Shown here: positions 4,898 through 56,069 of the stretch, piece by piece
How the letters are laid out: the number at the start of each line of letters is the position of its first letter
Position numbering within the stretch: position 1 is the first letter of the stretch
NCBI GenBank assembly: GCA_017461505.1
Contig: JAFTXV010000004.1
Span: forward strand, 13,490 to 77,489
Direction of reading: 5' to 3'
Source of the DNA: Paludibacteraceae bacterium
GTDB lineage: Bacteria > Bacteroidota > Bacteroidia > Bacteroidales > Paludibacteraceae
DNA: 64,000 bases
Translations under genes and position numbers: made by a program
The notes under the pieces: model-generated
The model's input: the letters and a program-made list of their open reading frames with translations, nothing else
Told to the model about the DNA's origin: nothing
Database searches by the model: none

Positions 4898-4979
4898 TGC
4901 GGCATAAAGGACTCGAACCTTCACTCCTCTCGAAACTAGATCCTAAGTCTAGCGCGTCTACCAATTCCGCCAATGCCGC
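4898..4979 (-). tRNA. tRNA-Leu (anticodon TAG), no encoded CCA
   Basis: The reverse complement folds as a cloverleaf. The acceptor stem is GCGGCAT/ATGCCGC. The anticodon arm is CTAGA-CTTAGGA-TCTAG with anticodon TAG. There is a long variable arm, the T-loop is TTCGAGT and the discriminator is A followed by CTT. Confidence 0.92.
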
Positions 4980-5055: not shown

Positions 5056-6324
5056 ATGAACGAAACTTTTTATCATAATTTACCTTCTGGACTGCAAATT
5101 GTCCATCGCAAGACCACTTCCCCCGTCGTATATGTCGGTATCATGGTCGGAGCGGGCACACGCCATGAGCTACCAAACGAAAATGGTATGGCGCATTACA
5201 TCGAGCATTGTGTTTTCAAGGGAACAGAGCACTACACCGCCCGCCAAATCATCAATCATATCGAGGGAATCGGCGGCGAAATCAATGCCTATACCACCAA
5301 GGAAGAAACCACTTTCTATGCGGCCACCCTGCGCCAACACTTCCGCACCACTCTCCACTTGCTAGCGGATATGGTGCTTCGCCCTACTTTTCATAAAAAG
5401 GAAACCGACAAGGAGCTTACCGTCATTCTCGACGAGATAGAGAGTTACAACGACTCGCCTAGCGAACTCATCTACGATGACTTTGAGAACATGATTTTCG
5501 AAGGCAGTTCACTCGCCATGCCTATTCTCGGCACCAAGCGAACTCTCCGCCACATCTCCAAGTCACCTGATATAGCTCTCAATTGGATGAAAACGCACTA
5601 CCGCCCCGAACGCATGGTGCTCTTCGTCCTTGGCAATATCTCCACCCAGCAAGTCATCTCCGCCGCAGAAAAAGAACTCCTCGCCCATAGCCCGCAGGGC
5701 ATCCAATATTCTCTAACTACTCCTGCGGAGAATGTGCATTCCACCTCCCTTCCCTTTAGGGAGGGGACGGGGGTAGGCTTCTCCCGCACCTTCCGCCGCC
5801 ATACCCACCAAACCCACATCATGCTCGGCTCGCACGCCTACCCTATCGGGCATCCCAAGCAACTAACCATGTATCTGCTCAACAACATCCTCGGCGGCGG
5901 CAGCATGTCTAGCCGACTGTATCTAAGCCTTCGCGAGAAGCATGGTCTAGTCTATAACATCGACTCGCAAGCTGTACCCCTCAGCGATACTGGCTATTGG
6001 AATATCTACCTCGCTTGCGAACCACAGCATAAGGAGCAATGCCTAGAGCTCTGCCACAAGGAGCTCAAGCAACTGCGCGACACTACGCTAACATCGGCTC
6101 AACTCCAACGCGCCCTGCGTCAGTTGGAAGGACAGATGGCTATCTCTGCTGAGAATCAAGAGAATAATGCATTGGCGATGGCTAAGCAGATGCTCTATCA
6201 CCACCATGCTCCCGCATGGCAAGAGACATTCGCCAAAGTGCAACAGATCACTCCTACCCAACTCCAAGACGTCGCCAACGAAGTCTTCGACCCCGAAAAA
6301 ATCTACACACTACTATACGACTAA
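5056..6324 (+). CDS. M16 family (pitrilysin/insulinase-like) zinc peptidase
   Basis: 422 aa. It has the inverted zinc motif HxxEH (HYIEH) followed by EETTFY, with M16 N- and C-terminal domains. Confidence 0.9.
   Translation: MNETFYHNLPSGLQIVHRKTTSPVVYVGIMVGAGTRHELPNENGMAHYIEHCVFKGTEHYTARQIINHIEGIGGEINAYTTKEETTFYAATLRQHFRTTLHLLADMVLRPTFHKKETDKELTVILDEIESYNDSPSELIYDDFENMIFEGSSLAMPILGTKRTLRHISKSPDIALNWMKTHYRPERMVLFVLGNISTQQVISAAEKELLAHSPQGIQYSLTTPAENVHSTSLPFREGTGVGFSRTFRRHTHQTHIMLGSHAYPIGHPKQLTMYLLNNILGGGSMSSRLYLSLREKHGLVYNIDSQAVPLSDTGYWNIYLACEPQHKEQCLELCHKELKQLRDTTLTSAQLQRALRQLEGQMAISAENQENNALAMAKQMLYHHHAPAWQETFAKVQQITPTQLQDVANEVFDPEKIYTLLYD
5744..5786. repeat. GC-rich hairpin/G-run micro-element, copy in the M16 peptidase gene (sense)
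   Basis: The sequence reads cctcccttccctttagggaggggacgggggtaggcttctccc. It encodes SLPFREGTGVGFS. Confidence 0.85.
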
Positions 6325-9421: not shown

Positions 9422-10612
9422 TTATTTTGCCATGTGCAAAGTTTTAGTATCCAATGATTTGCCGTTCAAGGTTGGAGTTTTCTCCAAACGGTATGAACGA
9501 TTAATCAATTTAGGAGTTCTTGCGCTTACCTTTGCAGGTTCTTCCTCTAGTGCATCAAATACACCGTTTACATCGAATACGCGATCAATCTTAGAATAGT
9601 CGTATGGAGTAACGAGCTTAATCTTTTGCTCATTTTCAAGAACATCCATATCCACTTTGAAACCATAGAGACGGTCTTCAGCAGTAACGTTAGCCCAAGT
9701 TACATCAGCAGCAAACACCGCAGGAACTTCTTCGCCAGTTTCTTTGTCTTTGTATGCTGATTGACAAAAGAGTTTATTGACTGCACCTATGTATGCATCA
9801 TAACCCCAGTCTTCGCCGAAAAACATCAACGCACCTGTTGTGTTAGCCATCGCCTCCTCACGAACAGCATCAACCTCCTCTTGTGTAATATCCTCTCCGG
9901 CGCTGAAAAGCAATTGAATCCAATCTCCGTAGGTTTCAGCCTCAATGTTTCCTGAATTTGCAACAAGAGGAAGAACCTCACCCTCAGCTAAAGGCATAAC
10001 TCCAAAGTAGCCCATATTTACCCCTACACCAGCATAGTCTGGGAAATTTTCGTCATTAACGACATACGTTGGAAAGTTTTGCAATACAAACACAACACCA
10101 TCACCTACAAATGCACCAGCATTTTGATCAAATGTGATGTTTTCATCCCATGCATAATATTCTGGTACATATGTTAGTGCGCATTTAACTTCTCCGATAG
10201 TCAACTTAAGAATAGTATCTGTTCCAGGAATTAATTTTCCATCTCCTGGGAGATAGACACCCCAATCAGCGATGCTCAATTCATTATAGAAAGCATCAGC
10301 CTCTACAGTAACTACACACTCTGCTGTCTTTTCACCTGCTGTAGCTGTAATCACAGCTGTACCTTCTGCAACGGCAGATACCACACCACCACCAGTAACA
10401 ATGGCTACTGCATTATCGCTAGAAGCCCAAGCAACTGCTGTACCAGCAGGATCAACTGTCGCTTTCAACATTTCTTCTGCACCAACAGCAAGTGTTAGTT
10501 TTGTTTTGTCTAACGTAACTGAGTTTACAGTAGGTTCTGGTTCTGGAGTAGGTTTGCAACCAACCAGCAACACGGTTGCCAATGCAACTGCAATAAAACC
10601 AATCTTTTTCAT
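9422..10612 (-). CDS. Surface lipoprotein with an N-terminal Big_2 (bacterial Ig-like) domain
   Basis: 396 aa. It has a lipobox (LLVGC) and a PEPEP linker. The Big_2-like segment is VTLDKTKLTLAVGAEEMLKATVDPAGTAVAWASSDNAVAIV. It lies immediately downstream of susD, the usual position of a surface binding protein. Confidence 0.75.
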   Translation of the reverse strand: MKKIGFIAVALATVLLVGCKPTPEPEPTVNSVTLDKTKLTLAVGAEEMLKATVDPAGTAVAWASSDNAVAIVTGGGVVSAVAEGTAVITATAGEKTAECVVTVEADAFYNELSIADWGVYLPGDGKLIPGTDTILKLTIGEVKCALTYVPEYYAWDENITFDQNAGAFVGDGVVFVLQNFPTYVVNDENFPDYAGVGVNMGYFGVMPLAEGEVLPLVANSGNIEAETYGDWIQLLFSAGEDITQEEVDAVREEAMANTTGALMFFGEDWGYDAYIGAVNKLFCQSAYKDKETGEEVPAVFAADVTWANVTAEDRLYGFKVDMDVLENEQKIKLVTPYDYSKIDRVFDVNGVFDALEEEPAKVSARTPKLINRSYRLEKTPTLNGKSLDTKTLHMAK

Positions 10613-15979: not shown

Positions 15980-16011
15980 CTTGCGTATATCATTTTTTTA
16001 CAGTACCTTTG
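15980..16011 (+). promoter_or_regulatory. btuB operon promoter
   Basis: CTTG at 15980-15983, a 20-nt spacer with T7 and TAccTTTG at 16004-16011. The riboswitch starts immediately downstream. Confidence 0.75.
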
Positions 16012-16175
16012 CAGCCGCAATTGGTAAAAGCGCCATGCTTGGGAAGCAAGTGAGATTCTTGCACAGACCCGCTGCTGTGATTCGCAATTGCACATCTAAC
16101 TCTTTATGTCACTGGAGGTTATACCGGGAAGGCAGGATGTGTGAGCGATAAGTCAGAAGACCGACCGTTGCATTA
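16012..16175 (+). promoter_or_regulatory. Cobalamin (B12) riboswitch
   Basis: It has GGGAAGCaaGTGAGATTC, CACTGG...CCGGGAAGGC and the B12 box AAGTCAGAAGACCGACC. Closing pairing is possible between GCAAttGG and CCgTTGC. It lies directly upstream of a TonB-dependent receptor. Confidence 0.88.
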
Positions 16176-16208
16176 GTTGAACACTCTCGTGGTATAGAGT
16201 AAGGCAAC

Positions 16209-18359
16209 ATGCGTAGATTAGTATCCATATTATTTTTCACACTCATGTGTGTGGCAGCATTCTCTCAAAACAATGCCGCCGACTCTCTTTTGGCCTTATC
16301 GCCTGATAGCCTCATCGCCCGTTATATAGACCTAGAGGAGTACACCATCACCGCCCGTGTCAAAGAAAAGGACATCATTATTCCTCAGACACTTTCGGGC
16401 GTACAACTCCAAAAGATGAATGCCCTCAGCGTAGCCGATGCCATCCGCTATTTCTCAGGCGTACAGATCAAAGACTATGGTGGTGTGGGCGGTATCAAAA
16501 CCGTCAATATCCGCAGCATGGGCACCAATCACATGGGCGTGTATTACAATGGTATTCAGCTCGGTAATGCACAAAACGGACAAATTGACCTCGGCAAGTA
16601 CTCTCTTGAGAATATCGAAGAGATCCAACTCTACAATGGTCAGAAATCCGATATTTGGCAGTCCGCCCGCGAGTTTGGTGCAGCAGGTAGCATCTACCTC
16701 ACCACCCGCCGTCCACGCTTCGCCGAAGGCAAGACTGTGAATGTCAAAGCACAAATGCGTGCAGGTAGTTTTGCCCTTATTGACCCCAGTTTATTGCTTG
16801 ATGTCAAACTCAGCGAAACGATGTCGCTGACCATGAACGCCGAACTCATCTCTTCCGATGGCAAGTATCCTTTCCGCTACCGCCGCGTCACTCCTTCGGG
16901 CGAAGTAGCATACGACACTACAGCCATCCGCCAGAACGGCGACATCAACGCTATTCGCGTGGAAGCCGCTGTCAATCACTACTATAGCAACACAGGCTTT
17001 TGGAAACTCCAACTCTATCACTACAACTCCGAGCGCGGTGTGCCGGGAGCCATTGTGAATAATGTGTGGCGTAATGGCGAACGCCTTTGGGACCGCAACT
17101 CCTTCCTTCAAGCCTCGTGGCAAGACGAACTCTTCAACCGTTGGTCGGTACGCGTAAATGCCAAGTACGCCAACGATTATACCCGTTATATCAACAACGA
17201 TGACAAACTCATCCATGTGGAGAACCAATACCTCCAGCAAGAGGCGTACTTCACCATGGCGCACAAAGTGCGTATCTTCGACTGGTGGGACGTCAGTGCG
17301 GCATACGATGTGCAGTACAACCAACTCAGCATGTTCCTTGACGCGCACCGTTGGACACATTGGCTCAGCGCTGCCACCGCTATCAACATAAAGAACTACC
17401 TGCGCCTGCAAGCCAGCGTATTAGGGACATTTGTCAATGATGCGCAATCAACCAACAACGGCGAAGCCCATCAACGCGAAGCCATTAACGCGAAGCCATC
17501 AACGCTTGCAGAGCAAGCCACTAACGCGAGCGCAGCGAGCATAAAATGGACCCCAGCCATGTTCCTCTCCTACCGCCCTACCCAACTAGTAGATTTGCGT
17601 CTAAACGCCTTTTACAAACAGAGTTACCGCTACCCAACCTTCAATGACCTCTACTATACCGACATGGGCAACGCTTATCTCAAACCCGAGTTAGCAAAGC
17701 AGCATAGTGTTGGATTGAGCTTTACACAACCTTTCCGTATTGCGGGGCAAAAGGGCTCGGAGTTCCGCCTCAATGCCGATTACTACTACAATCGCATATC
17801 CGATAAGATCATCGCTTACCCAAAAGGCCAGCAGTTCCGTTGGACAATGCTTAACCTCGGATTGGTCAAAATCAACGGTTTAGACCTCAATGCGCAACTG
17901 CATTTTGTCTTGCCGATGGACTTCTACCTCACAGCCAAAGCGCAATATACCTACCAAACGGCTATCGATGTCACCGACCCCAACGACACCTATTATGGCG
18001 ACCAGATTCCGTATATCCCATGGCATTCGGGTAGCGCAGTGGGTATGTTTGGTTGGCAAAACGACTGGCAGCAGTATGGCTTAAATTACAGCTTTATCTA
18101 TGTAGGAGAACGCTACAACCAACAGGAAAATATCATCTATAACTACACCCAACCTTGGTATACCCACGATTTGAGCGTATTTGGAGAATGGGATATATAT
18201 AAGGTTAAAGGCAAGAGGTTAGAGGTTAAAGGCAAAAGATTATTTACGCTCCGCGTAGCGCTCGACATCAACAACTTGCTGTCGCAAGATTACGATGTGA
18301 TTCTCAATTACCCTATGCCCAAACGCAACTACAAATGTACGGTAAGTATAACATATTAG
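16209..18359 (+). CDS. btuB: TonB-dependent receptor, BtuB-like corrinoid transporter
   Basis: 716 aa with signal peptide, plug domain and beta-barrel. It is controlled by the cobalamin riboswitch and followed by btuFCD-type genes. Confidence 0.88.
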   Translation: MRRLVSILFFTLMCVAAFSQNNAADSLLALSPDSLIARYIDLEEYTITARVKEKDIIIPQTLSGVQLQKMNALSVADAIRYFSGVQIKDYGGVGGIKTVNIRSMGTNHMGVYYNGIQLGNAQNGQIDLGKYSLENIEEIQLYNGQKSDIWQSAREFGAAGSIYLTTRRPRFAEGKTVNVKAQMRAGSFALIDPSLLLDVKLSETMSLTMNAELISSDGKYPFRYRRVTPSGEVAYDTTAIRQNGDINAIRVEAAVNHYYSNTGFWKLQLYHYNSERGVPGAIVNNVWRNGERLWDRNSFLQASWQDELFNRWSVRVNAKYANDYTRYINNDDKLIHVENQYLQQEAYFTMAHKVRIFDWWDVSAAYDVQYNQLSMFLDAHRWTHWLSAATAINIKNYLRLQASVLGTFVNDAQSTNNGEAHQREAINAKPSTLAEQATNASAASIKWTPAMFLSYRPTQLVDLRLNAFYKQSYRYPTFNDLYYTDMGNAYLKPELAKQHSVGLSFTQPFRIAGQKGSEFRLNADYYYNRISDKIIAYPKGQQFRWTMLNLGLVKINGLDLNAQLHFVLPMDFYLTAKAQYTYQTAIDVTDPNDTYYGDQIPYIPWHSGSAVGMFGWQNDWQQYGLNYSFIYVGERYNQQENIIYNYTQPWYTHDLSVFGEWDIYKVKGKRLEVKGKRLFTLRVALDINNLLSQDYDVILNYPMPKRNYKCTVSITY
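17461..17535. repeat. Degenerate 14-15 bp tandem repeat embedded in-frame in btuB
   Basis: The units read gcgaagcccatcaac, gcgaagccattaac and gcgaagccatcaac, followed by gcttgcagagcaagccactaac and gcgagcgcagcgagc. The period is not a multiple of 3. Confidence 0.85.
18204..18245. repeat. 21-bp tandem repeat x2 in-frame near the btuB 3' end
   Basis: The units read aggttaaaggcaagaggttag and aggttaaaggcaaaagattat. They encode KVKGKRL and EVKGKRL. Confidence 0.9.
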
Positions 18360-19519
18360 GTGATAAGGCTATAAGGCTATTGGGCTATTGGTTATTGGCT
18401 ATTGGCTTAATGAGCTGCCGTGGGGATGAGATTATCTTCCCTGCGGAGTATGAAGTTTTGCCGATGGAATCGAGAGAATTGAGCAGTTTTGCGCCCAACG
18501 AGCCCATAGGCATGTACCTGCTCAATGAAGGTAATATGGGTAGCAACAAAGCCACGATTGACTACCTCGATTTCAGCAAGGGCATATATATCCGCAATAT
18601 CTACGGCGAACGTAATCCCAATGTTATCAAAGAATTAGGTGATGTAGGCAACGATATCCAAGTCTATGGCAATCGCCTCTATGCCGTCATCAACTGCTCG
18701 CACAAAGTAGAAGTGATGGATGCCCATACCTGTCGCCGTATTGGTCAAGTAGATATCCCTAATTGTCGCTACATTTGTTTTCGTGGCAATAAGGCATATG
18801 TAAGTTCGTATGTTGGACCAGTGAGCATCGATCCGAATGCTCAGTTAGGTGCGATATTTGAGATTGATACTGCCACGTTGCAAATTACTCGCAAAGTGAC
18901 TGTGGGTTATCAACCTGAGGAATTGATCGTTAACAATGAGCATATTTATGTGGTAAATTCTGGTGGTTATAGGGCACCAGACTACGATTCTACCATGTCA
19001 ATCATTTCCCTCAAAGATTTCCGTCAAGTACAAAAAATACCCGTATGCCTCAATCCTCACCGCATGCGTCAAGACCAATATAGTCGGTTGTGGATTACAT
19101 CTCGCGGAGATTATAAAGATGTTCAACCTATACTTACATGCTTCTCACTCATATCCAAAGAAATATTGCCCATGGCTAAAGCACCAACTGTTTCAGAGAT
19201 GGTAATTTGTGGTGATAGTATGTATTTTTATGGAACACATTGGAGTGAACAAACTATGTCAAATCAAATAACATATGGCATTTTTGACATCCGAAAACAA
19301 ACACTCGTTTCCGAACATTTTATTACAGACGGAACGGAACAAGAGATTAAGATTCCATATGGTATACAAGTCAATCCTTATAATGGTGATATATATGTTA
19401 CAGATGCAAAAAACTATGTCTCAAGTGGTCAATTACATTGCTACTCGCGCGAAGGCAAACGCAAGTGGTCTGTGCGCACGGGTGATATCCCTGCTCATAT
19501 GTGCTTTGTCTATCGTTAG
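18335..19519 (+). CDS. btuG: YncE-like beta-propeller surface lipoprotein, BtuG-like (putative B12-capturing lid of BtuB)
   Basis: 394 aa. It has a lipobox (LMSC) and repeated YVxN/YVTD-type propeller blades (IYVVNSGG, IYVTDAKNY). It lies immediately after btuB in a riboswitch-controlled operon. The start is uncertain because the ORF overlaps btuB by 25 nt. Confidence 0.6.
   Translation: MYGKYNILGDKAIRLLGYWLLAIGLMSCRGDEIIFPAEYEVLPMESRELSSFAPNEPIGMYLLNEGNMGSNKATIDYLDFSKGIYIRNIYGERNPNVIKELGDVGNDIQVYGNRLYAVINCSHKVEVMDAHTCRRIGQVDIPNCRYICFRGNKAYVSSYVGPVSIDPNAQLGAIFEIDTATLQITRKVTVGYQPEELIVNNEHIYVVNSGGYRAPDYDSTMSIISLKDFRQVQKIPVCLNPHRMRQDQYSRLWITSRGDYKDVQPILTCFSLISKEILPMAKAPTVSEMVICGDSMYFYGTHWSEQTMSNQITYGIFDIRKQTLVSEHFITDGTEQEIKIPYGIQVNPYNGDIYVTDAKNYVSSGQLHCYSREGKRKWSVRTGDIPAHMCFVYR
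18363..18406. repeat. Degenerate 8-9 bp tandem repeat (AAGGCTAT / GGCTATTG) in the btuG-like signal-peptide region
   Basis: The sequence reads ataaggctataaggctattgggctattggttattggctattggc. Confidence 0.85.
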
Positions 19520-35007: not shown

Positions 35008-35066
35008 TCGCATAACGAGCTATGGGACGCCGTTAGGCTATTGGACGGCGTTTCGTCTATTGGGGA
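35008..35066. repeat. 18-bp degenerate tandem repeat about 2.5 copies long (GCTATKGGACGSCGTT)
   Basis: The sequence reads gagctatgggacgccgttaggctattggacggcgtttcgtctattgggga. Confidence 0.75.
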
Positions 35067-47667: not shown

Positions 47668-48495
47668 ATGATAGGTGTTTTTGATAGTGGTTATGGCGGT
47701 CTGACTATCTTGAGTAAGATTCGCCAATTACTTCCCGAGTACGATTATCTCTACTTGGGCGACAATGCTCGTGCGCCCTACGGAACTCGCTCATTTGATG
47801 TGATTTACGAATACACCTTGCAAGCAGTAAACTACCTTCACGAACAAGGATGCAACTTGATTATACTAGCCTGTAATACTGCTAGCGCTGAAGCGCTCCG
47901 CACTATTCAGCAGCGTGACATCAATCCCGAAGAACTTCGTGTATTGGGTGTCATCCGTCCTACAGTAGAGGTTATTCCGCAGCGCACAAAAAACAAACAT
48001 ATTGGTGTACTCGCCACCCCAGGCACAGTTGCTTCTGAGAGTTATGTGATTGAGTTATTGAAGCAAGACCCTACTCTCGTTGTCACTCAACAAGCATGCC
48101 CTATGTGGGTGCCGCTGATTGAGTCAGGAGAACACTTGGGAGAGGGCGCAGACTATTTTGTAGAGAAATACTTGAACGAATTGCTCGAACAAGACCCTCT
48201 TATTGATACCATCATTTTGGGATGCACCCACTATCCACTTATTCAAGACAAGATTGAAGCATATTTGTTGCAAACCAACCGCCACATATCAGTTGTAACG
48301 CAGGGCGAGATTGTCGCGCAGAGTCTAGCGGATTATCTACACCGCCATCCTGAAATTGTCGAACGTATCTCCTCCCCTTTGAGGGGGAGGTCGGGAGGGG
48401 GCTTCCTTACTACCGAATCAGCCACCAAGTTTGCCGATTCTGCTTCGCTTTTCTTATCCGAACCGATTGAGGCGGAGCATATTGAGTTGCAATAG
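47668..48495 (+). CDS. murI: Glutamate racemase
   Basis: 275 aa. Motifs include IGVFDSGYGGLT, ACNTAS and LGCTHYP, which contain the catalytic Cys residues. Confidence 0.93.
   Translation: MIGVFDSGYGGLTILSKIRQLLPEYDYLYLGDNARAPYGTRSFDVIYEYTLQAVNYLHEQGCNLIILACNTASAEALRTIQQRDINPEELRVLGVIRPTVEVIPQRTKNKHIGVLATPGTVASESYVIELLKQDPTLVVTQQACPMWVPLIESGEHLGEGADYFVEKYLNELLEQDPLIDTIILGCTHYPLIQDKIEAYLLQTNRHISVVTQGEIVAQSLADYLHRHPEIVERISSPLRGRSGGGFLTTESATKFADSASLFLSEPIEAEHIELQ
48368..48407. repeat. GC-rich hairpin/G-run micro-element, copy in murI (sense)
   Basis: The sequence reads tctcctcccctttgagggggaggtcgggagggggcttcctt. It encodes SSPLRGRSGGGFL. Confidence 0.85.
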
Positions 48496-53726: not shown

Positions 53727-56069
53727 TTAATGTGCTTGGAGCCAGTTGGTACCGACACCGCAGTCAGCAATGAGAGGTACGGTGAGATGCACTACATTCT
53801 GCATCTCACTAACCACTATTTCACGAACCTTATCTACCTCATTTTGAGGGACATTGAAGTTCAACTCATCGTGCACCTGCATAATCATTTGTGCCTTTAG
53901 TCCCTCCTCTTTCAGGCGTCGATGGATAGTGACCATTGCCATCTTGATAATATCCGCAGCTGTACCTTGGATAGGAGAATTGACTGCGTTGCGCTCGGCA
54001 AAGGAGCGGACTGTAGCATTATGTGACAAGATATCAGGGAGATAGCGTTTGCGTCCGAAGAGTGTAACCGCATAGCCCTGTTCACGGGCGAGTTGTTTTT
54101 GTTGCTCGATATAGTCAATCACACCTGGGAATGCAGCAAAATAGCCGTCGATGAGTGCTTTTGCCTCAGAACGAGAGCAGTCGAGTTGTTGGGCTAGGCC
54201 AAAGGCAGAAATACCATAAATAATACCGAAATTGGCCGTTTTGGCTTGTCTGCGTTGGTCTTTTGTGACATTTTCGATAGGTACATTGAATATCTTAGCC
54301 GCAGTTGCCGCGTGGATATCTTGCCCTGATCGGAATGCCTCAACAAGATGTGGATCCTGCGAGAAATGAGCCATAAGGCGCAGTTCAATCTGCGAATAAT
54401 CGGCAGAGAGGAAGAGGCATCCCTCATCAGGAATCACAGCCTGACGAATGAGTTGTCCGCGCTCGGAACGGATGGGAAGATTCTGAAGATTAGGGTTGGA
54501 GGAGGATAGTCGTCCCGTAGCCGTAACCGTCTGGTTATAAGTAGTATGAATCTTCCCAGTGGTAGGATTGATATAAGTTGGCAGGGCAGAGATATAGGTA
54601 GAAATCAGTTTCTTGAGTTCGCGGTAAGCGAGGATCATTCCTACCACAGGATGCTTGGGTTTGAGGGCAAGCAGTACTTCCTCAGAAGTGGAATATTGTC
54701 CGTTCTTAGATTTTTTCGCTTTGGCATCAAGTTGCAGTTGGTCGAAAAGCACCTCTCCTACTTGCTTTGGCGAATTGATATTGAAGGTTGTTGAGGCAGA
54801 TGTATATATCTGTTGCTCAAGGGTTTGCAGTTCCTCATTGAGTTGAGTCTCCGCCTGCTTGAGCATAGGTACATCAATGCGTACACCCGCCTGCTCCATC
54901 TCGCGAAGGATGGCGGAAAGTGGCAGTTCGACCTCTTGGTAGAGGTTCCAAAGCGAAGAATCAGCCTTCAGCGCATCCCAGTTTATCGGTTGATTAGGAT
55001 TGAAAGCCACCTCAGGATTCAACAAATAACTTACTAGCCGTCCCTCTACCGAATCACTTGTATCGTTCGGTAAGCCTTCGGTATCGTTTCGGAGTGGTAA
55101 CGGAGTGGTAACGGGATTGATAGATGCAAAGAGGTCAAGAGTAGCTTCGGTCTTCGTGGATTTTTTGGAGCCTATCCCACCCCTCCTTGAAGGGAGGGAG
55201 TTTTGTTGATTGGGAGCTTGTTTGAGAAGAGAATTGAACTCTAGCTCTCTGTACAAAGGTGCCAACTTATCCCAGTTTTTCTCCTGATACACAAGCGATT
55301 GCGCATCAAAATCTATTGGGACATCGGTTTTGATAGTCGCTAAGAAATAGGAGAAACGAATATCCTCCACTTGCTCCTGCACTTTGCGTTGAAGGGCACC
55401 CTTTAGTTGGTCGGTATTGGCAAGCAGATTATCAATCGAACCGAACTGTTGCAAGAGTTGCACAGCCGTTTTCTCTCCCACTCCTTTACAGCCAGGGATA
55501 TTATCACTACTATCGCCCATCAGTCCGAGCAGGTCAATCACTTGCGATTGATTTTGCAATCCATATTTTTCGCACACCTCTTGTGGGCCGAGCTTTTCAA
55601 ATCCTCCAGTATGGCGTGGACGATACATAAAAATATGTTCCGAAACAAGCTGACCATAGTCTTTGTCGGGTGTAGCCATATAGACCTCAAATCCCTCTTT
55701 CTCGGCCTTGTGTGCGAGTGTGCCAATCAGGTCATCTGCCTCGTATCCAGATACTTCAAGCACAGGCACATTCATTGCTTGGAGAATCTGTTTGATACGA
55801 GGGACAGCCCAACGTATATCCTCCGGAGTCTCTTGTCGTTGCGCCTTGTATTGCTCAAATGCCTCGTGGCGGAAAGTAGGACCTACGGGGTCAAAAGCCA
55901 CCGCTATATGACTGGGTTTGAGACGCTTAAGCAAGTCTTCGAAGGTAACTATAAAGCCAAAAATTGCTGAGGTATTTTCCCCGCGCGAGTTCATACGAGG
56001 TGCGCGAATGAAAGCGTAGTACGCGCGATAAATCATCGCATACGCATCTATGAGGAGGAGAGTTTTCAT
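53727..56069 (-). CDS. polA: DNA polymerase I with 5'-nuclease and polymerase domains but only a vestigial 3'-5' exonuclease region
   Basis: 780 aa. The 5'-3' exonuclease motifs include LLIDAYAMIYRAYYA and GDSSDNIPG. The family A polymerase motifs include DYSQIELR, RRQAKTANFGIIYG and QVHDEL. Only about 85 aa lie between the two domains. Confidence 0.93.
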   Translation of the reverse strand: MKTLLLIDAYAMIYRAYYAFIRAPRMNSRGENTSAIFGFIVTFEDLLKRLKPSHIAVAFDPVGPTFRHEAFEQYKAQRQETPEDIRWAVPRIKQILQAMNVPVLEVSGYEADDLIGTLAHKAEKEGFEVYMATPDKDYGQLVSEHIFMYRPRHTGGFEKLGPQEVCEKYGLQNQSQVIDLLGLMGDSSDNIPGCKGVGEKTAVQLLQQFGSIDNLLANTDQLKGALQRKVQEQVEDIRFSYFLATIKTDVPIDFDAQSLVYQEKNWDKLAPLYRELEFNSLLKQAPNQQNSLPSRRGGIGSKKSTKTEATLDLFASINPVTTPLPLRNDTEGLPNDTSDSVEGRLVSYLLNPEVAFNPNQPINWDALKADSSLWNLYQEVELPLSAILREMEQAGVRIDVPMLKQAETQLNEELQTLEQQIYTSASTTFNINSPKQVGEVLFDQLQLDAKAKKSKNGQYSTSEEVLLALKPKHPVVGMILAYRELKKLISTYISALPTYINPTTGKIHTTYNQTVTATGRLSSSNPNLQNLPIRSERGQLIRQAVIPDEGCLFLSADYSQIELRLMAHFSQDPHLVEAFRSGQDIHAATAAKIFNVPIENVTKDQRRQAKTANFGIIYGISAFGLAQQLDCSRSEAKALIDGYFAAFPGVIDYIEQQKQLAREQGYAVTLFGRKRYLPDILSHNATVRSFAERNAVNSPIQGTAADIIKMAMVTIHRRLKEEGLKAQMIMQVHDELNFNVPQNEVDKVREIVVSEMQNVVHLTVPLIADCGVGTNWLQAH
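55168..55200. repeat. GC-rich hairpin/G-run micro-element, copy in polA (on the minus strand, sense to the gene)
   Basis: The reverse complement reads ctccctcccttcaaggaggggtgggataggctc. It encodes SLPSRRGGIGS in the PolA inter-domain linker. Confidence 0.8.

Follow-up and report, generated by a model that had tools for sequence, protein, structure and literature searches.

Solo triplex-type repeats inside conserved Bacteroidales genes and their probable kinship with DUF559 endonuclease cassettes

How does a GC-rich DNA segment of some 40 bp come to lie in four different conserved genes of one short genomic region while leaving every reading frame open? The question is raised by a 64-kb stretch (hereafter the window) of contig JAFTXV010000004.1 from a Paludibacteraceae bacterium, a Bacteroidales metagenome-assembled genome (MAG) whose placement is supported by the names of identical or near-identical database proteins. 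An earlier note had described four copies of such an element there, in rsmH, an M16 peptidase gene, murI and polA (copies A to D below), and the window sequence contains all four where that note had placed them. We conclude that the copies are probably solo units, devoid of an open reading frame (ORF), that represent remains or satellites of a family of cassettes with a triplex-type architecture, in which inverted repeats bound a gene for a DUF559 endonuclease.

The reference copy, B, occupies positions 5744-5786 (+) in sense orientation within the M16 peptidase gene (5056-6324, +), where it is translated as SLPFREGTGVGFS. Its pyrimidine arm, TCCCTTCCC (5746-5754, +), pairs with the first purine arm, GGGAGGGGA (5759-5767, +), at 9/9 positions, one of them G-T, and the second purine arm or 'tag', GGGGGTAGG (5769-5777, +), mirrors the first with 7/9 allowed triads. 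Copy A (645-686, +) lies antisense within rsmH (281-1279, -), is composed of ATCCCTTCCC / TCT / AGGGAGGGGG / TA / GGGGTAGGCT and is translated as PTPTPSLEGRDF; copy C (48368-48407, +), the most divergent in sequence, stands in sense within murI (47668-48495, +), with the parts CTCCTCCCC / TTTG / AGGGGGAGG / TC / GGGAGGGGGC and the translation SSPLRGRSGGGF; copy D (about 55164-55203, -), whose third arm is degenerate, is in sense in the linker of polA (53727-56069, -), with the parts CTCCCTCCCT / TCAA / GGAGGGG / T / GGGATAGGCT and the translation SLPSRRGGIGS. All four are solo units, and the identities of the host ORFs rest on Pfam. A regular-expression scan for a C-rich arm, loop and G-rich arm returned exactly these four places in the window, while a degenerate pattern gave 8 overlapping matches against 0.18 expected, a count reached by 0 of 100 shuffles. 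Run over the window, an nhmmer profile built from the four copies likewise recovered only those four (E<=2e-8), the next independent match having E>6.

The unit measures 36-40 bp (CTCCCTTCCCTTTAGGGAGGGGACGGGGGTAGGC as a Bacteroidales oligonucleotide) and consists of a pyrimidine arm, a loop of 3-4 nt, a purine arm, a loop of 1-3 nt and another purine arm, the mirror image of the first. Its G-rich tail is conserved, as GGGG(G)TAGGC in Bacteroidales and GGGGTTAGGT elsewhere, though the pattern with which we scanned a genome collection, CCCTTCCCTNNRGGGARGGGN{1,4}GGG, required only GGG. Among the matches listed, arm and tag covary, GGGAAGGG going with GGGTTAGG at 63:2 and GGGAGGGG with GGGTAGG at 51:1 (Fisher p = 1.5e-29, counts and p being uncorrected for shared ancestry). 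The tail reads as a mirror of the purine arm in which T faces A, and mirroring of this kind is characteristic of intrastrand purine-motif triplexes. When hairpin pairs and triads are combined in one score and compared with shuffles, copies A, B and C, with 8-9 Watson-Crick/GT pairs and 7-8 allowed triads, reach 14.5-15.2 against about 8 +/- 1 (maximum 12.8). By sequence, the four copies are solo units of the 'intrastrand triplex' architecture of BoxC/PIT/TMECO repeats, in a Bacteroidales sequence variant for which triplex formation is predicted from the mirroring of the arms. The TMECO expression itself, CCCTCNCCC N3-6 GGGNGAGGG N3 GGGNGAGGG, has no match in the window. An integron attC site was considered and rejected: its GTTRRRY is similar to GTTAGGT/C, which the Bacteroidales tag does not contain, and the copies are scattered through housekeeping genes.

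The connection with an endonuclease came from loci outside the window. In a delta-proteobacterial MAG (L064), inverted copies of the unit 400-450 bp apart flank a 131-aa DUF559 ORF, and in a Prevotella MAG (L087) inverted copies bracket an in-frame DUF559 inside a DegT aminotransferase, both inserts being assigned to DUF559 (PF04480) with Pfam E = 2e-31 and 4e-26, respectively. A six-frame search of all fetched loci found DUF559 only adjoining units, in these two and in L067. We then turned to an independent set of 80 DUF559 metagenome loci, chosen by protein similarity alone, in which a significant inverted repeat links the two 150-bp flanks at 43/74 DUF559 loci, against 2/224 position-shifted decoys. 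A profile-detected antisense unit precedes the gene in 10 of the 13 closest relatives of L087 (L127-L139), typically 45-75 bp upstream and farther away in L139; in L127 the profile also detects a sense unit, some 25 bp downstream, and in the others the flank read-outs show G-rich units downstream. The repeats always follow a single plan, namely tag, C-arm/loop/G-arm hairpin, gene, hairpin and tag, with the tag distal to the gene, and their stems covary between DUF559 lineages (among them CCCCTCC/GGAGGGG, CCCTCTC/GAGAGGG, GCTCCC/GGGGGC, TTTCCCC/GGGGAAA).

The window copies, each a single end, align with right ends of DUF559 cassettes; for copy B the alignment with those of L087 and L127 is close from one end of the unit to the other. 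At the M16 site of two relatives, L004 and L007, a left end is directly followed by a right end, which amounts to a cassette without its gene. Elsewhere (L130, L138, L139, L148, L172), one cassette end is repeated 2-3 times in tandem beside the DUF559 gene, which indicates that single units can be amplified locally. The DUF559 protein matches the endonuclease-like PDB entry 3HRL (E = 1e-16), and it has weaker matches to the homing endonuclease I-Bth0305I (3R3P, E = 8e-3) and the PADLOC 'HEase' model; its E, D, H and D positions are invariant, and NCBIfam relates it to E. coli YcjD. We found no open-access paper that links DUF559 (COG2852, PF04480, EDxHD, ycjD) to these repeats, and earlier work outside the open literature may exist.

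Cassettes of about 0.45-0.5 kb occur between genes and also in frame inside conserved genes. Out of 80 DUF559 ORFs, 21 are fully embedded, the open frame extending 100 codons or more upstream and 60 or more downstream, and a further 18 are open on one side only; for 14 of these 18 the open side is downstream, as in the L128-L136 cassettes that lie some 80-95 codons into DegT. The hosts include isoleucyl-, leucyl- and methionyl-tRNA synthetases, methionine synthase (MetH), NAD-epimerases, DegT aminotransferases, a CinA-like protein and an HD-domain protein resembling a CCA-adding/poly(A) polymerase-type enzyme. Six hosts scanned with Pfam contain no Hint/intein domain, their own domains being split by DUF559 only, and 15-25 repeat-encoded residues lie on each side between host sequence and DUF559. 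Since neither intein nor intron was found, the cassette appears to stay in the mature host protein. In individual loci from marine and other metagenomes (L168-L170, L172, L181, L199, L164, L178, L195), IleRS, LeuRS, MetRS or methionine synthase holds an in-frame DUF559 between peptides encoded by the repeats, for example SPKGGE and SPLLWRGTGGEV.

Are the four segments of the window inserted DNA, or ancestral parts of the proteins? The earlier note had favored insertion, and the comparison of orthologues bears this out, since the same DNA of about 36 nt recurs between genes as well as in unrelated genes and is spread over many phyla, and since orthologues that are 85-99% identical have unrelated sequence at the unit sites. 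Among 120 homologues of the M16 peptidase (82-99% identity, 410-464 aa), all differences in length fall at the place where copy B lies. There, L004 has a second hairpin unit directly before the unit, L007 has another hairpin nested within the loop of the unit, and L005 and L006 have unrelated low-complexity repeats instead. The nested hairpin of L007 (GCGGGGTCCCCGAAAACGC / GCGTTTTGGGGTGC, 9595-9715), which adds 13 in-frame residues, suggests that unit loops are themselves insertion targets. The same linker holds other small repeats: a partial second micro-repeat, CATAGCCCGCAGGGCATCCAATAT ('HSPQGIQY'), lies upstream of copy B (window 5684-5740), and in relatives (P0047, P0050, P0062, P0078; L006 10001-11272) a 54-nt unit, SEASHSPQGVQYPIAx, stands in tandem about 2-4 times in proteins of 423-464 aa.

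The other three sites behave in a comparable way. The rsmH site of L005 contains unrelated filler between flanks that are about 99% identical; the murI unit (copy C) is nearly fixed at identities of 85% or more, but it is missing from P0218, and P0208 has a different filler in its place; and relatives have four or more unrelated alleles, similar in length, in the polA linker. On known structures, copy A falls in a gap or loop relative to RsmH (1WG8 and 3TKA), copy B in an alignment gap against 3HDI that corresponds to an inter-domain linker, and copy C takes the place of a loop whose counterpart in B. subtilis MurI (1ZUW) has only about 4 residues fewer. The window copies thus occupy permissive, fast-turning-over loops or linkers that are hypervariable among close relatives. 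That they are open in frame and sit in such places upholds the likeness to Rickettsia palindromic elements (RPE) that had been drawn before, whereas the suggested addition of 11-14 residues was too high: the net gain is 7 aa relative to the L005 rsmH allele, about 4 relative to B. subtilis MurI and 1 to 4 relative to other polA alleles. As for the polA host, its product (53727-56069, -) has only 780 aa, with Pfam 5'-3' exonuclease and polymerase domains and no 3'-5' exonuclease domain, and the linker that holds copy D is about 135 aa long and poorly conserved; in some relatives it contains an AT-rich filler, 'IQNSKFKIQNSK', which also occurs at the murI site of P0208.

Outside the window the family proved to be far more widespread. 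The genome-collection scan returned at least 139 copies in at least 119 loci from at least eight phyla, per-genome copy numbers and taxonomic range being lower bounds. Taxa among the matches listed are Chloroflexota, delta-proteobacterial/Myxococcota, Alphaproteobacteria, Bacteroidota, Planctomycetota, Gemmatimonadota, Bipolaricaulota, Fraserbacteria and Thermotogae MAGs, together with single matches in Pseudomonas and UBP2. Besides the four in the 64-kb window, three more copies occur in 15 kb of the relative L004; those of L004 lie in a Usp gene, in the M16 gene and in one intergenic region, where the copy (1274-1308) starts 2 nt past a stop codon and is followed by a T-run. Some Chloroflexota loci contain inverted doublets of the unit. 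In another, on chromosome OY759972.1 (L084, 2370-2700), a hairpin, ATTGCGGCnnnnGCCGCAAT, and a triplex-type unit alternate in a tandem array with a 72-bp period; a CRISPR-like array was rejected there, as the 72-bp period is a tandem composite of two hairpin repeats without unique spacers.

This wider sample qualifies what had been proposed for the window. Loci below 53% GC, mostly from Bacteroidota, hold 43 copies among the matches listed, of which heuristic ORF calls place 21 well inside ORFs of at least 200 aa and 22 not. Fourteen of the 21 are antisense and seven sense, in four main frames, and one antisense copy encodes a different peptide. Being below the 90% or so expected of random insertion and far above the level of classical repetitive extragenic palindromes (REPs), this in-ORF share fits purifying selection on random insertions, not an ORF-specific element. 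The proposal that the element occurs only inside ORFs therefore holds for 4/4 copies in the window, but it has no statistical weight there, because at a coding density of about 0.90 random placement would give the same outcome with P of about 0.67, and it is false for the family. A restriction to housekeeping enzymes is not seen either, the hosts of the 43 low-GC copies being varied, and the shared reading frame, on which the three sense copies of the window do agree, gives way elsewhere to two sense and two main antisense frames.

If DUF559 proteins are tied to such repeats, a BoxC should be found beside ycjD, and this was checked in E. coli K-12. In the region 1351039-1351410 of NC_000913.3, ycjD is followed, at a distance of about 170 bp, by a unit that matches the TMECO expression and has a score of 17.2 against 9.1 +/- 1.0 for its shuffles (maximum 12.2). 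A decayed unit overlaps the stop codon of ycjD, and the last 60 nt or so of the gene are duplicated between this decayed unit and the BoxC, so that the locus looks like a decayed cassette. In a survey of 5426 E. coli genomes, the 66-bp segment of this locus occurs at 17 places in the median genome. With the 23 BoxC copies known in E. coli (Holder 2015, PMC4666352) spread over 4.64 Mb, we estimate a probability of about 0.002 for a BoxC within 200 bp of a given gene.

Other features of the window include short tandem CCAATAGC-type units with a GCGTCCAATAGCC / GCGTCCCATAGC pair at 18383-18405 (-) and 35018-35044 (-), which look like the filler that relatives carry at their M16 and rsmH sites; they may constitute a second small-repeat family. 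A scan of the whole window at Rfam gathering thresholds detected only a cobalamin riboswitch and a tRNA, and a permissive scan over copy B gave chance-level matches only. Both are ordinary: the riboswitch (16004-16183, +) lies upstream of a TonB-dependent receptor gene (16209-18359), and the tRNA gene is at 4898-4979 (-).

Repeats of the BoxC/PIT/TMECO class have been known since the 1990s and have, to our knowledge, no assigned function and no known route of spread. Its successive names are BoxC, PIT elements and TMECO (Bachellier 1990s; Hoyne & Maher 2000; Holder 2015). TMECO is about 37 nt long, its triplex was shown by circular dichroism, nuclear magnetic resonance and dimethyl sulfate footprinting, and its 3610 occurrences in 262 proteobacterial genomes were reported only from Proteobacteria; in E. 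coli it is described as 'always intergenic', not associated with mobile elements and tied to strain-to-strain locus variability (PMC4666352). The units described here share with that class the succession of a C-rich arm of about 9 nt, a loop of 3-6 nt, a G-rich arm, a short loop and a mirrored G-rich arm, the length of about 37 nt, apparently the dispersal in many highly conserved copies, and loci that vary between close strains. They differ in sequence (CCCTTCCCT.. here, CCCTCNCCC in TMECO), in the second loop, which in the best register has 1-2 nt (raw spacers 2-3 nt) instead of 3 nt, in that about half of the copies among the low-GC matches listed are in frame in ORFs, and in that the unit forms the inverted ends of DUF559 genes.

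Other known systems match only some of these traits. RPEs and intragenic REPs (Ogata 2000; Di Nocera 2013, PMC3733652) are likewise short palindromic repeats found in frame in housekeeping genes, DNA polymerase I included, where they are translated and tolerated in loops. However, the RPE families (RPE-1 to RPE-8) belong to Rickettsiales and RPE-1 measures 100-150 bp, so that only the in-frame behavior is shared with the 36-40 bp Bacteroidales units of unrelated sequence, and intragenic REPs have a 5' GTAG or CGTC tag and a link to RAYT, in place of the mirror third arm and PD-(D/E)XK-type nuclease found here. REPtrons and REPINs also place a small nuclease gene between two inverted hairpin repeats that are otherwise dispersed as non-autonomous copies, but RAYT is a Y1 HUH transposase, single-copy and extragenic, whereas DUF559 is Vsr/EDxHD-like and its cassettes are found at several places and within genes. 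Homing endonuclease genes in inteins and group I introns (Vsr-like EDxHD, I-Bth0305I; Dassa 2009, Taylor 2011) encode a related nuclease (3R3P) and are inserted in frame at conserved sites of essential genes, with aminoacyl-tRNA synthetases, MetH and polA-type genes as hosts; in contrast, no Hint domain or intron was detected with DUF559 cassettes, which are bounded by hairpin/triplex inverted repeats normally absent from homing endonuclease genes. [quoted passage not shown]

The reading of the four copies as solo units of DUF559 cassettes implies a possible mechanism. The DUF559 nuclease would cut at or beside the hairpin/triplex ends, or at the target site, and repair would then copy or remove the cassette, either in a homing-like manner or directed by the hairpin. 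Selection would retain only in-frame, stop-free insertions in surface loops or linkers, and repeated rounds of break and repair could produce the hypervariable sites.

Several points weigh against this reading. While membership of the family, its architecture, the flanking of DUF559, in-frame embedding and site hypervariability are observed, the action of the nuclease on the units and the route of spread are what we infer from them. The window and the scanned loci of close relatives contain no DUF559 gene (L207 and L208 being scanned only for units), so the source genome may hold only orphan units, and no unit is present in the 44 kb of L207 and L208. In L064 the tag is proximal to the gene, the opposite of the Bacteroidota arrangement, which fits a gene among repeats as well as repeats that are gene ends. 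Copy D is marginal, with four triads, a poor third arm and a score of 11.2 against 7.9 +/- 1.1 for shuffles (maximum 11.8). Hairpin stability does not differ significantly from dinucleotide shuffles (z from -0.6 to -1.5 for the tag strand and from -0.25 to -1.7 for the two strands together), and hairpin energies, being unremarkable for the composition, are not counted as support. Neither a target-site duplication nor a clean empty site is definable for any window copy, and unit boundaries cannot be fixed at the L004 intergenic copy, the rsmH site or the polA site because the alternative alleles hold unrelated filler. E. coli has some 17-23 BoxC copies and one named DUF559 gene, ycjD, whose BoxC is 170 bp off and not abutting. 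To these must be added the limits of the counts themselves, namely the lower bounds on copy number and range, the heuristic ORF calls, which underlie the embedding counts as well as the coding split, and the shared ancestry within the arm-tag covariation.

The most serious competing explanation, which we nevertheless consider unlikely, is that the units are structural motifs maintained by the host, or recombination hot spots spread by recombination or slippage, and that DUF559 genes home into them as landing pads. The reversed unit orientation around the L064 gene, the excess of BoxC copies over named DUF559 genes in E. coli together with the distance of the nearest BoxC from ycjD, the nested hairpin of L007 with its hint that loops are insertion targets, the extra tandem units at cassette ends, and the finding of no mobile-element link in E. 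coli by Holder 2015 (PMC4666352) would all agree with it. It is less easily reconciled with unit sequences that covary with the DUF559 lineage, with matched inverted copies on both flanks whose tags are distal, or with cassettes at different conserved sites of many hosts, where nothing unit-like is seen in the host flanks apart from the paired units; a pre-existing inverted pair of units would be needed in each host gene. That the units might instead be classical REPs or REPINs, moved by RAYT (Y1 HUH) and residing in part in genes as in Opitutus terrae and Rickettsia, seems very improbable. The units have a comparable size and hairpin, their tail contains 'GTAG', Chloroflexota have inverted doublets, and intragenic REPs, including those in polA, are on record (PMC3733652). 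Yet the polarity is wrong, GTAG lying 3' of the hairpin here and 5' in REPs, and the TTAGG and GAGAGG variants lack it altogether; the supposed tag is no tetranucleotide but mirrors the purine arm over 9 nt; the gene found between units is DUF559 in 3 genome loci and 43/74 metagenome loci, no systematic search having been aimed at Y1 transposases; and the intragenic REP peptides compared from Additional file 3 of PMC3733652 are unlike the unit peptides.

Two further explanations have little to recommend them. The idea of a hairpin/G-quadruplex switch acting on host transcription or translation is hardly tenable: G-runs do lie on one strand, and intergenic copies can abut T-runs, as at L004 1274-1308, but no copy has four tracts of three or more G, the window has no canonical G-quadruplex motif anywhere, and the hairpin-versus-quadruplex alternative first envisaged is thus not supported. 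The mirroring of the purine arm by the tail, in which T or A faces A, is to be expected of a triplex and not of a quadruplex, both orientations relative to transcription occur, and PIT elements showed no promoter or terminator activity in work cited by PMC4666352. Least probable of all, and already contradicted by the data, is that the segments are ancestral or convergent Pro/Gly/Arg-rich loops whose DNA likeness is a by-product. The loop of similar length at the copy C site in B. subtilis MurI and the near-fixation of copy C in homologues of at least 85% identity would suit such loops, but antisense copy A encodes a different peptide from the same DNA, that DNA is also found between genes, in four main frames and across phyla, and close orthologues have unrelated sequence at the sites.

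The BoxC/PIT/TMECO repeat class is already known, as are intragenic palindromic repeats (RPE, intragenic REPs); the coding-embedded Bacteroidales variant, the systematic link with DUF559 and the intein-less in-frame cassettes in essential genes appear to be new. Going further, and more tentatively than for the four copies themselves, we suggest that YcjD and other DUF559 proteins could be the missing enzymes of BoxC/PIT repeats. They would then define a new class of selfish element, in which a Vsr-like endonuclease gene bounded by hairpin/triplex inverted repeats inserts in frame at conserved sites of essential genes without intein or intron and sheds solo or mini units as protein-embedded MITEs, rendering the places where these insert hypervariable. 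The DUF559 link offers a candidate mobilizing enzyme for BoxC-type repeats, a hypothesis that is testable in E. coli with YcjD and BoxC and that, if true, could explain the instability of BoxC loci. It would also reveal a new lifestyle for a selfish endonuclease gene in essential genes, based on in-frame read-through instead of protein or RNA splicing. The recurrent Pro/Gly/Arg-rich 'junk' peptides and the odd endonuclease domains annotated in aminoacyl-tRNA synthetases, MetH, polymerases and sugar-nucleotide enzymes would thereby find an explanation, and unit sites flag loops that tolerate insertions.

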